From Candidatus Nomurabacteria bacterium (GTDB taxonomy: Bacteria > Patescibacteriota > Minisyncoccia > Phycocordibacterales > UBA9973), in assembly GCA_023267215.1 (NCBI GenBank), contig JAHFNS010000002.1, forward strand, positions 32,149-96,148: 64,000 nt of DNA, in the 5' to 3' direction. Position numbers and translations under genes: made by a program. This document shows, in pieces, positions 38,334-40,496 of this stretch. Position 1 is the first letter of the stretch. Each line of letters starts with the position of its first letter. The notes beneath the pieces are model-generated. The model had not been told where the DNA came from. It did no database searches and worked only from the letters and a program-made list of their open reading frames with translations.

Positions 38334-40496
38334 CTATTTTAACATATCCAAAAATTCTTTCTCGTTTATAACCTTTACCCCTAATTTCTGAGCATTTGTC
38401 AATTTAGACCCAGCTTCTTCTCCAGCTATAACATAAGAAGTATTTTTAGAAACAGAACTTGATACTTTACCACTGAGAGAAATAATTTTTTCTTTAGCAA
38501 GGGTGCGGGAGATTGATGATAATGTACCAGTCAAAACAAAAGTTAAACCCGAAAGTTTCCCTTCTTTTTTCTTTTCAACTTTTTCTATAGTTACACCATT
38601 TTTTAATAACTTTTCTATAAAGACCAAATTACTCTTTTCTTTAAAATAATTATATACACTACTAGAAACGGCAGGTCCTATGTTTTCTATCCTATTTATT
38701 TCTTCAATTTCAGCGTTATAAAGTTTATTGAGTGTACCAAAATTATTAGCTAAATCTCGCGCTGTCTCCTCTCCAACATGTAATATCCCAAGTGCAAAGA
38801 GAAATTTAGAAAATGGAATTTTCTTTTTTAACTTTATTTCTTTAATTATATTTTCTGCTGATTTTTCTCCAAATCTTTCAAGTGGCGCAATATCTTCTTT
38901 TGAAAGAGTGAAGATATCTGCTGCATCAGTAATCAAACCTTCATCTTTAAAACGTCTTAAAATCTTTGGACCCAATTCATAAATTTCAAAAGCAGAAACA
39001 AAATGAATTAATGATCTTTCATTTTTGGCAGGGCATTTAGGATTAGTGCAATAAAAAGCAACAGATAATTTGTCTGACTCCTCAAAGCCGGGCTTTTTTG
39101 AATTCTTAAAGCCCGGCTTTTTCCCACCAGACTCTTTCTTCTCAACCCCACTTCCGCAAACAGGACATTTCGAAACCATTTTAAATTTTTTTTCTTTACC
39201 AGTACGCATGCGTGTCAAAACCTCCACTACCTTCGGAATAACATCTCCTGCTTTTTCGATAACGACAGTATCTCCTATTCTTAAATCCAATCTCTCTATC
39301 TGGTCTGCATTATGAAGTGTCGCTTTAGATACAACAGAACCTGCAACAGAAGTCGGTTCAAAAATAGCAAGTGGCGTCAAGACTCCTGTACGTCCTACGT
39401 TTATTTTTATATCTTTTACAATAGTTGTAGCTCGTTCAGCTGGATATTTATAAGCTGCCATATATCGTGGAGCTTTACCGATAACACCTAAAATTTCTTG
39501 TGTTTTTAAATCATCAACTGATATTACGACACCATCTGTGCCATAAGGAAAATCTGGTCTAATTTTTTCAAATTTTTTTATAAAGGCTGTAACTTCTTTT
39601 AAGTTTTTACAAATAGCTTGATTTTTATCTATTTGAAATCCTATCCTATTTAGATAATCATGTTTTTCCGAGTGCGTATAAAGGTCGGGCCTTTTTGAAG
39701 ACTTAAGGTCCGACCTTGAAAATTCTACTTCAGCTATATCGTAGGCAAAAAAATCTAATTCTCTTTCTGCTGCTAATTTTGGATCTAGTTGTCTTAAGCT
39801 TCCAGCAGCAGCATTTCTAGAATTTGCAAAAAGGGGTCTATCATTCTTTTCGTTCTCAAAATTAAGTTTTATTAAAGTTTTTTTACTCATTAAAACTTCT
39901 CCACGAACTTCTGTATAATCTGGGATTTCTTCCCCTCCTTTTTGAGGAGGGGTGCCAAAGGCAGGGTGGTGATTTTTTGAATTACCACCCTCTTCCCCCT
40001 CCTTCCCAAGGAGGGGAGATAATTCGAGGGGAATAGATTTTATAGTCTTTAAATTTTGAGTAATATCTTCTCCAATAAATCCATCTCCTCTCGTCGCACC
40101 TCTTACAAACTTCCCTTTTTCATAAATTAAAGTTACAGCTAAGCCATCAAACTTAACTTCACAAAAATAATTTATTTTTGTATTTGAAGATAAAAGCTTC
40201 TTTACTCTTTTCTCCCAGTCATATAATTCTTCTTCACTAAATACATCATTTAATGAAAGCATTCTAGTTTTGTGTTTAACTTTTTCAAATTTATCTAAAG
40301 GCCTACCAGCAACTCTATTTTCTCCTGCATTTAAATCTTCAAATTCTGGATATTTTTTAATTAAAACTTTTAATTCATTATTTAAAGAATCATAAACATC
40401 ATCAGTACCAATATCCTTCGTATGATACGCATCTCGCAGTCTTGCGATTTCACTTCGCAATTTTTTTATTCTCTTTTCAGCTTCTATAAGATTCAT
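38334..40496 (-). CDS. ligA: NAD-dependent DNA ligase LigA with multiple in-frame GC-hairpin insertions
   Basis: adenylation KxDG (EVKFDGLAV), OB fold, Zn-finger CPVCGS...CTNPKCPA, HhH and C-terminal BRCT; low-complexity inserts [24 protein letters not shown] and [19 protein letters not shown] correspond to hairpins. Confidence 0.9.
39085..39120. repeat. hairpin element in ligA: 13-bp perfect stem AAAGCCGGGCTTT / AAAGCCCGGCTTT, loop TTGAATTCTT
   Basis: read directly; encodes [14 protein letters not shown] in LigA. Confidence 0.85.
39681..39717. repeat. second related hairpin in ligA: AAGGTCGGGCCTT stem (one G.U), loop TTTGAAGACTT
   Basis: same architecture and loop core TTTGAAnnCTT as 39085 copy; encodes [13 protein letters not shown]. 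Confidence 0.8.
39932..40016. repeat. cluster of three GC hairpins in ligA (CCCCTCCT-TTTG-AGGAGGGG; GGGTGGTGA-TTTTTTGAA-TTACCACCC; CCCCTCCTT-CCC-AAGGAGGGG)
   Basis: read directly; middle hairpin loop TTTTTTGAATT matches loop of 39085 element. Confidence 0.8.

Follow-up and report, generated by a model that had tools for sequence, protein, structure and literature searches.

The NAD-dependent DNA ligase gene, ligA, of a Candidatus Nomurabacteria bacterium raises the question of how five GC-rich hairpins came to lie within its coding sequence while its reading frame stayed open. The gene belongs to a 64-kb stretch of contig JAHFNS010000002.1, which we analysed as a whole and call the window. 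Our answer, to which we assign a probability of roughly 70%, is that the hairpins in ligA are copies of mobile DNA palindromes, small, non-autonomous and defined by their structure, which are kept in frame in surface loops of the enzyme; the family through which we traced them is called F1 here. An independent hairpin scan recovered all five hairpins that a preliminary description of this DNA had placed in ligA, and the open reading frame (ORF) is uninterrupted, so that all of them are stop-free and, as that description had also stated, in frame. The gene and its hairpins are as follows.

38334-40496, minus strand: ligA, NAD-dependent DNA ligase, a single uninterrupted ORF of 720 amino acids.
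39084-39120, minus strand: hairpin 1, the core of site 3, with a perfect 13-bp stem (13/13 paired) and loop TTTGAATTCTT.
39681-39717, minus strand: hairpin 2, site 2, with a 13-bp stem carrying one mismatch (12/13 paired) and loop TTTGAAGACTT.
39932-39952, minus strand: hairpin 3, site 1, arms CCCCTCCT / AGGAGGGG and loop TTTTG.
39953-39962, minus strand: a sixth mini-hairpin, GCC aaa GGC, between the hairpins at 39932-39952 and 39963-39991.
39963-39991, minus strand: hairpin 4, site 1, with a 12-bp stem carrying one mismatch, a TTTTG loop between AATT flanks and the F1-like loop AATTCAAAAAAT.
39996-40016, minus strand: hairpin 5, site 1, arms CCCCTCCTT / AAGGAGGGG and loop CCC.

Chance does not account for these structures. 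Two hundred dinucleotide-preserving shuffles of ligA averaged 0.23 such hairpins and never exceeded 3, against the 5 observed; the entire window holds 22, compared with 3-9 in shuffles, and 10 with at least 12 paired bases, compared with none in ten shuffles. Folded as single-stranded DNA, the ligA elements have z scores of -3.6 to -6.4 relative to shuffled sequence. No Rfam 15 family was matched (two chance-level hits, E = 0.16 and 0.63, lay far under the gathering score), and a scan for intrinsic terminators called none of the ligA hairpins, all of which are inside an ORF, in either orientation. On these results a known RNA family and an intrinsic terminator (stem, 3-8-nt loop, T run, gene end) were both rejected as candidates.

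The window LigA aligns with E. coli LigA (PDB 2OWO) at E = 3e-150 and shows the Pfam domain order of an adenylation domain in two stretches, an OB fold, a zinc finger, HhH and BRCT; its closest homologues are all from Patescibacteria (Paceibacterota, Nomurabacteria and Minisyncoccia). Three of its segments have no counterpart in the 2OWO alignment, and these define sites 1, 2 and 3, over which the five hairpins are spread. The count of five insertions given previously therefore holds for hairpins but not for insertion sites, of which there are three, the trio at 39932-40016 forming one composite of about 90 nt. The inserts had also been placed between the conserved LigA domains, whereas sites 1 and 2 lie inside the adenylation domain and site 3 inside the C4 zinc finger. 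The elements at these sites are listed below.

39936-40019, minus strand: site 1 composite cassette of about 85-90 nt with four hairpins, following the conserved IPL(E)L.
39681-39717, minus strand: site 2 element, a canonical F1 copy, coding strand AAGGTCGGACCTT aagtcttcaaa AAGGCCCGACCTT.
39072-39132, minus strand: site 3 element, with outer stem GTCTG/CAGAC, a 7x7 internal loop GTGGGAA / GAGGAGT and an F1-type core.
39084-39120, minus strand: site 3 core hairpin, coding strand AAAGCCGGGCTTT aagaattcaaa AAAGCCCGGCTTT, an AAAG/CTTT-ended variant of the F1 architecture.

The two elements of about 36 nt, at site 2 and in the core of site 3, had been called identical in architecture; they share the 13-bp stem and loop plan. 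The copy at 39681 has a mismatch and the copy at 39084 has AAAG/CTTT feet. The site 1 insert corresponds to a 28-residue gap in E. coli LigA at residues 159-161, and its composite folds at -27 to -29 kcal/mol. The site 2 element makes up 12 residues after the YDIAE motif of the adenylation domain, and about 9 residues of this segment have no E. coli counterpart. The site 3 insert fills a gap of 20 residues in E. coli LigA inside the zinc finger, and its element folds as single-stranded DNA at -16.8 kcal/mol (z = -6.3). The zinc finger of the window LigA is stretched over residues 443-490, compared with a Pfam profile of only 27 positions; its Pfam match falls under the cut-off, and the adenylation-domain match is split.

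Comparison with relatives, whose DNA loci we label L### and whose LigA proteins we label P####, bore out the expectation that these peptide segments are not part of LigA in general: they are missing from E. coli LigA and from many same-class LigA proteins of 68-80% identity. In an alignment of 22 close homologues the same sites are empty in P0046, P0079, P0100 and P0023, while other homologues hold the same or quite different GC-rich low-complexity inserts. The site 1 composite recurs in L002, L006 and L205 and is inherited as one unit by several relatives; P0010 and P0011 have a much shorter insert there (SPPAKGEVGRGSDSN, PPLVKGEVGRG). Site 2 has no insert in L003/P0006, P0005 and P0016, and in L002 and L004 it keeps decayed copies. 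The site 3 element is missing in L002 and P0008/P0023 and present in L001, an 81%-identical relative that has the AAAG...CTTT copy in common with the window; the two cores differ by one compensatory pair change, G-C to A-T, in which both changes are synonymous. Site 0, a fourth hot spot after KKLL, is empty in the window. Among the 120 closest LigA proteins, sites 0, 1, 2 and 3 span 5-24, 5-52, 6-46 and 9-69 residues, with window lengths of 7, 38, 20 and 31 residues. The alignments identify the sites as insertions at apparently tolerant loops, not ancestral sequence. An AlphaFold (AF2) model built on the 22-sequence alignment, mediocre at a predicted local distance difference test (pLDDT) score of 62, renders the three window inserts as low-confidence coil, which is weak backing for a coil because the OB domain was modelled poorly too. 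The inserts probably give short, mostly basic, hydrophilic, disordered loops that the enzyme tolerates.

The F1 architecture, recognised in the DNA gathered for 85 ligA loci, consists of AAGG-N5-CCTT, a 10-14-nt loop and AAGG-N5'-CCTT, 36-40 nt overall. Its loop is often AAGAATTCAAA, giving RSDLKNSKRSDL, the basic peptide of the dominant frame; AAGAGAGTTTCCCC and AAGGGAGCCC characterise further loop subfamilies. A conserved internal loop, gggaa...gagga, often accompanies F1 and separates an outer stem from the core. The loop motif TTTTGAAnnC taken on its own is not enriched (9 occurrences in the window, 11.4 expected); the family is defined by its stem and loop architecture and not by its loop. 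In the ligA-anchored loci, each of the four ligA hot spots has F1 copies, and PheT and spacers have them too. Further copies had been predicted elsewhere, and a scan of one genome per species with the pattern AAGGNNNNNCCTTAAGN{7,11}AAGGNNNNNCCTT, its N5 segments left unconstrained, returned at least 119 loci in many genes, copy numbers being lower bounds throughout. At least 114 of these copies have complementary arms (no more than one mismatch in 114 of the 128 matches listed, against a chance of about 1 in 1000). Nearly all hosts of the listed matches are labelled Patescibacteria, under the names Nomura-, Lloyd-, Kaiser-, Vogel-, Zambryski-, Yonath-, Taga-, Niyogi- and Wildermuthbacteria, Minisyncoccia and Paceibacterota. 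Single metagenome-assembled genomes (MAGs) hold several copies, at least 14 in one Lloydbacteria MAG and at least 7 in H43-bin105_1.

Pairing extends to 98.2% of cells in a 30-copy F1 alignment, with covariation at each of the five free stem pairs; double-sided stem changes number 53, against 11.8 in shuffles, and none of 500 shuffles reaches 53. On these alignments the stems covary while the loop and the stem feet stay conserved. We could tell apart F1, an F1-like variant and a CCCCTCC/GGAGGGG family, and by the sequences at hand several element families circulate in Patescibacteria, mostly in Paceibacteria/Parcubacteria-type lineages. The proposal of a selfish family of hairpin insertions colonising an essential gene is therefore upheld in its core, except that more than one family is involved and that the selfish character of the elements is something we infer.

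Where the copies sit and how they are read point to DNA as the level at which the palindromes are maintained. Among 112 copies listed, 86 lie inside ORFs of at least 80 amino acids; 64 run in the same direction as the host ORF, 22 run opposite and 26 are non-coding. Three of the six F1 frames are open, and genes show open frames only: coding copies are always in frame and stop-free, at a few insertion-tolerant loops. The arms are perfect in 73 of 95 ORF copies. Non-self-complementary N5 segments make the peptides encoded by the two arms differ (RQDL...RSCL), and still the DNA is perfectly complementary. Sense-strand mismatches in GC-rich ORF hairpins with one mismatch comprise 13 G.T and 16 A.C; with no excess of G.T over A.C, wobble pairing in mRNA has left no signature. 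The palindromy is a DNA-level property. A structure acting in mRNA was rejected as a candidate for want of a G.U over A.C bias on the sense strand.

In-frame hosts of F1 include LigA, PheT, LeuRS, Topo I, UvrC, SMC, RNase H, L22 and others, with recurrent peptides such as RSDLKNSKRSDL. LigA accounts for 6 of 69 ORF-borne copies among the matches listed from the genome-wide scan, which was not anchored on ligA; other recurrent hosts listed are class I aminoacyl-tRNA synthetases (aaRS; 6), topoisomerase I (4), class V aminotransferase (4), PheT, SMC, ArgRS, UvrC and an RsmI-like methylase. GC-rich hairpins in the ligA-anchored loci reach a density of 0.55/kb within ligA and 0.16/kb outside, a 3.4-fold difference, and the hairpin census there counts 23 hairpins of the CCCTC/GAGGG type inside the gene and 17 outside. 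We infer that large multidomain nucleic-acid enzymes offer loops that tolerate short basic peptides, and that essentiality blocks imprecise deletion.

Copies differ in presence between alleles and orthologues, a kind of difference that the preliminary description had proposed to look for. The ligA genes of L204 and L205 are about 100% identical over 2.2 kb save for some 100 nt at site 1: the window-type composite stands there in L205, an unrelated cassette in L204. The core hairpin of the L204 cassette, CCCCTCTCCATTTT...AAATGGAGAGGGG, belongs to one family with a non-coding element of which the window has two copies. L207 carries an 81-nt palindromic insert in the HhH region of ligA that is missing from L206; its peptide family is also found at site 2 of other LigA proteins. 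Filled and empty orthologues were likewise found for RNase H (a 19-codon insert in L106, compared with L135/L166), a GatB-like gene (L157, compared with L133), an RsmI-like gene (L121 and L203, compared with L195) and LeuRS (L111/L151, compared with L184). By sequence comparison, presence/absence and cassette exchange between near-identical ligA alleles appear as direct evidence of turnover. Copies within one genome are more alike than same-site copies across genomes: an identical 37-mer occupies four loci of MAG H43-bin105_1, L141 and L199 have the same arm mismatch, as have L113 and L177 (Nomurabacteria Ike-150m-34), L123 and L188 have identical copies in different genes, and unusual GAGG...CCTC stem feet are common to both ligA copies of L028. 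At the exact same nucleotide position of the ligA zinc finger, stems and even the loop subfamily differ by lineage. As a separate observation, the ligA genes of L206 and L207 (P0095 / P0145) are 100% identical over the first 1140 nt and 75-90% identical over the remainder, a mosaic that indicates recent homologous recombination between diverged lineages within ligA.

The flanks of the copies give clues to a mechanism. Outer stems of at least 6 bp surround 37% of copies, a share that drops to 2.6% in controls pairing flanks of different copies, and stems of at least 8 bp surround 23%, against 0.25% in the controls; their arms are locus-specific and AT-rich like the host DNA. Direct repeats of at least 6 nt are not enriched (13% of F1 copies, 12% of mismatched-flank controls); the 6-nt GGTATT repeat of L157 is apparently fortuitous or exceptional. 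Position -1 is A or C in 85% of copies and +1 is G in 61%, with no single fixed tetranucleotide; motifs vary by lineage, (A/G)TAC...GTA(T/C) surrounding Lloydbacteria copies and gggaa others. In PheT of L017 the outer arm on the right, CATAAATTC, extends over codons for K-F that are conserved in the host, and the arm on the left repeats it inverted, with 9/9 matches; the orthologous copy of L050 follows a host codon change from CAT to CAG. The left outer arm in the LigA zinc finger similarly follows the third position of a host Pro codon (CCA/TGG, CCG/CGG, CCT/AGG). The empty RNase H site of L135 is a perfect 12-nt palindrome, GATTTT|AAAATC, which the L106 insert splits exactly.

We propose that a folded single-stranded DNA intermediate, in hairpin or cruciform shape, mediates the spread or exchange of the elements. 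The elements might integrate at the centre of short host palindromes, or an inverted copy of the neighbouring host flank might be made by fold-back/template-switch synthesis; locus-specific outer stems would result from either route, and both would involve a folded single-stranded or cruciform intermediate. The same intermediate would permit arm-to-arm correction, by which stems would stay perfect, and translation of the inserts would yield loops tolerated by the enzyme. Although four-fold degenerate sites have reached saturation from lineage to lineage (27-37% identity), pairing in the zinc-finger stems is still 12-13/13; arm-to-arm correction, recurrent replacement or selection could each explain the kept stems. 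A bolder and decidedly tentative version is that this is a new, structure-templated class of mobile DNA with no dedicated transposase, in which a hairpin of about 40 nt would home to or create palindrome centres by fold-back/template-switch at forks, self-correct its arms and swap cassettes at a few hot-spot loops of essential nucleic-acid enzymes; new peptide segments would thereby be continuously written into core proteins across Patescibacteria.

Several observations weigh against the reading of the hairpins as mobile palindromes, or limit how far it can be taken. The window holds no F1 copy outside ligA, so that the evidence of spread comes from other genomes, and loops have diverged among copies in some genomes, for example the Lloydbacteria MAG, such that much of the spread may be old. 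The filled RNase H allele (L106 1300-1400, compared with L135/L166) is 10-16 nt longer than accounted for, and the data fit both integration at palindrome centres and inverted copying of the flank. Selection for a host function could explain just as well why stems stay perfect at one fixed site in lineages that have reached saturation. ORF contexts outside ligA and PheT are naive stop-to-stop calls, and translation of the inserts is presumed from the open frame. Between the two inverted F1 copies of L146, the one stretch read there, only ribosomal protein genes and no transposase were found, and no IMG/VR viral contig matches the F1 pattern.

Some observations adjoin these points. The extra TGACTTTGGA of L106 resembles a second, GG-interrupted copy of the target GATTTT...AAAATC. 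The L146 copies (4997-5036 and 6809-6848) lie in a ribosomal protein operon of a Nomurabacteria MAG, one forming the C-terminal tail of L22 (...KRTVLKRVSPRAALKKK) and the other in the rplN-rpsQ spacer. Two candidates were rejected on this material, a composite transposon on account of the ordinary ribosomal protein genes between the inverted L146 copies, and a viral origin on account of the lack of an IMG/VR match.

The hairpins could instead be ordinary repetitive extragenic palindromic (REP) elements of an undescribed superfamily, moved in trans by an IS200/IS605-family tyrosine (Y1/HUH) transposase resembling a REP-associated tyrosine transposase (RAYT). Size and hairpin architecture fit, as do the subfamilies with alternative complementary stem bases, the lack of target duplication, the preference for A/C at -1 and G at +1 and the (A/G)TAC...GTA(T/C) of the Lloydbacteria copies; LigA, Topo I, UvrC, SMC and aaRS also match the documented list of genes with intragenic REPs (PMC3733652). 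The terminal tag that defines REPs is nearly absent, however, CGTC occurring within 8-10 nt of the ends in 1 of 112 copies and GTAG/CTAC in none, and 86 of those copies are intragenic rather than extragenic. No RAYT or other transposase stood beside the copies examined, in an analysis that included no genome-wide search aimed at Y1 transposases, and locus-specific outer stems are not described for REPs; we consider this explanation unlikely. It is more doubtful still that the hairpins or their peptides are kept for the host, as basic flexible loops that raise nucleic-acid affinity or as regulatory DNA or RNA structures. Stems that stay perfect at a fixed site despite saturated synonymous sites, a loop conserved across orders, the enrichment of nucleic-acid enzymes among hosts and the basic peptide RSDLKNSKRSDL of the dominant frame would all suit such a function. 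Yet many close relatives lack an insert at the same sites, one site accepts either of two unrelated cassettes, three reading frames, both orientations and spacers are all used, arms encoding different peptides remain complementary as DNA, the sense strand shows no wobble bias, and the terminator scan calls none of the hairpins.

Two further explanations dispense with mobile elements or with their translation. Palindromes might arise locally, by template switching (quasi-palindrome correction) or hairpin-end repair from neighbouring sequence, and the outer stems, locus-specific and sometimes with an arm of host sequence, look as this would predict; template switching has been proposed for maintained coding palindromes elsewhere (PMC6649704). 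But the stem feet, loop and internal-loop motif of the core are the same at more than 100 unrelated loci in many lineages, and exact 37-mers recur within one genome. Local generation is unable to yield such shared sequence and accounts only for the outer arms and the upkeep of stems, so that as a full explanation it is very unlikely. Removal or skipping of the inserts at the RNA or translation level, by excision or by a bypass 'hop' like that of the Magnusiomyces mitochondrial byp elements, is scarcely credible: stable GC-rich hairpins in AT-rich coding sequence do resemble byp (PMC6649704), but every coding copy is in frame and stop-free, only the open frames of the element are found in genes, the copies inspected are not surrounded by matching take-off and landing codons, and no Rfam family matches. 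We retain mobile, structure-defined palindromes as the most likely explanation of the ligA hairpins.

The window and its relatives contain other palindromes. In dnaG (1702-3480, minus strand) a 47-nt palindrome at 2793-2839, with a 21-bp stem carrying one mismatch and a TTTTT loop, sits in the primase catalytic core, where it accounts for about 16 residues that separate GRI(F) from the conserved PKYLNSP; it has the look of a further in-frame insert, again in a replication gene and of a family other than F1. CATG-centred perfect palindromes with core TACGCCATGGCGTA (17743-17776, 35948-35967, 53759-53796 and also 17295-17326) are hosted by a Cas2/PaaX_M-like ORF, truB and a ComF-like phosphoribosyltransferase ORF; they are the CCATGG palindromes from which the preliminary description had set the ligA hairpins apart, and they form a separate family. 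The multi-hairpin non-coding element mentioned above, of about 110-150 nt, has copies at 62261-62410 and 63040-63150 that flank a membrane-protein ORF (62447-63070), partly overlapping its 3' end; it contains CCCCTCTCCAAAAT...ATTTTGGAGAGGGG, ATCTGCT taat AGCAGAT, GGGGTGAGGT and TCCCCCTGATAAGGGGGA, and relatives have its hairpins within ligA (in the site 1 cassette of L204 and at L054 6372). Of two intergenic hairpins with 20-bp stems, at 45323-45375 and 22236-22283, one lies between T2SSF-like and PilT-like genes and the other between rpmF (L32) and a divergent 585-aa ORF, identified as ThrRS through its synteny with L004. In pheT (28636-30423) a hypervariable hot spot precedes the conserved KFKMWS(L/I)FPFI; the window copy is short there, and relatives carry F1 and other GC-rich inserts (compared: L001-L004, L017, L040, L050, L064, L093 and L161). 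A peptide ARNAS...SD(S/A)GG occurs in both PheT (L064) and LigA (P0005), which suggests, from these two sequences, yet another mobile family. Finally, ligA directly adjoins a type IV pilus / competence-type cluster (40504-46439) of pilin-like genes, a prepilin peptidase, T2SSF and PilT/PilB ATPases, with synteny kept across relatives including L002-L004.

If our reading is correct, selfish DNA inside protein genes, known mainly from Rickettsia and a few REP-rich proteobacteria, would be extended to a major uncultivated radiation, whose tiny genomes are under strong reduction and nevertheless hold several families of palindromic mini-elements in core genes of replication, repair and translation. 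The elements would account for part of the length variation and low-complexity inserts in proteins of the candidate phyla radiation (CPR), and they degrade annotation by hidden Markov models, as with the zinc finger and adenylation domain of the window LigA. Outer stems, missing target duplication and cassette swaps offer testable handles on the mobilisation mechanism and bear on the birth of new peptide segments in essential proteins. The literature searched contained no account of intragenic palindromes in Patescibacteria/CPR, an absence that is not proof.

Fungal mitochondrial GC clusters, double-hairpin elements and byp are GC-rich mini-hairpins that invade AT-rich genomes, including protein genes. 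They differ from F1 in being organellar, and ribosomes skip byp elements, which do not have to be in frame, whereas F1 copies in genes are always open. Double hairpins whose arms are each palindromic do occur in ligA of relatives (L001 874-919, L082 519-566, L052 5876-5921 and L019 10469-10514; for example GGACATCCGATGTCC actt GGACATCCGATGTCC), and their architecture recalls the fungal double-hairpin elements. Like MITEs (transposable elements of the miniature inverted-repeat kind), F1 is small, non-autonomous and structured, but it lacks the terminal inverted repeats around internal sequence and the direct target duplication of classical MITEs. Derivatives of IS200/IS605 insertion sequences (IS) make no target duplication and act on hairpins in single-stranded DNA; F1 differs in having a single hairpin instead of two subterminal ones, and no parent IS was found. 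TIGR (tandem interspaced guide RNA) arrays of TIGR-Tas systems alternate two 8-12-nt repeats with 9-nt non-covarying spacers (PMC12045711); a TIGR unit was rejected, given that F1 copies are solitary and their 5-nt variable segments strictly complementary.

The closest known kinds are Rickettsia palindromic elements (RPEs) and intragenic REPs and, for the kept perfection of the arms, the coding palindromes of Nematomorpha. RPEs (Ogata et al. 2000, 2002, in the summary given by PMC10969869) are selfish palindromic repeats inserted in frame into many unrelated, often essential genes of a reduced, AT-rich genome, encoding family-specific peptides in fold-compatible loops, with no transposase known; their repeat identity is reported to be lost over time (PMC6649704). 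F1 likewise places a family-specific peptide in frame in unrelated protein genes. It is shorter, at 36-40 nt or about 60 nt with the outer stem (about 90 nt for the site 1 composite) compared with about 100-150 bp, is hosted by Patescibacteria instead of Rickettsia, has mostly perfect, covarying stems where RPE repeats reportedly decay (PMC6649704), and has no noted sequence relationship to RPEs, whose consensus was not compared. Intragenic REPs of other phyla occur in replication and repair genes, including a DNA ligase, in aaRS and in truB, and REP superfamilies are defined by an unpaired GTAG or CGTC end tag (PMC3733652). With REPs, which are thought to be mobilised as single-stranded hairpins, F1 shares genome-repeated hairpins of 20-40 nt and alternative complementary stem bases. 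Unlike them, it is without the GTAG/CGTC tag and mostly intragenic in our sample, where REPs lie predominantly outside genes and downstream of ORFs, and its 13-bp stem and 10-14-nt loop are both longer than in most REPs; no head-to-head dimers were noted in the copies inspected, without a systematic search, and a non-exhaustive search found no RAYT association. In Nematomorpha mitochondria, perfect inverted repeats in functional genes are gained and lost dynamically, and their arm identity is apparently maintained, for which template switching or repeat conversion has been proposed (PMC6649704). Those repeats reach 284 bp and consist of the gene's own conserved sequence with no dispersed family, whereas in F1 the loci have a conserved mobile core in common and only the outer arms are local. 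Locus-specific outer stems and the exchange of cassettes at hot spots have not been described for RPEs or REPs; in other respects the elements in ligA appear, by their sequences, to be one phenomenon with RPEs and intragenic REPs, met here in a new phylum and represented by new families.

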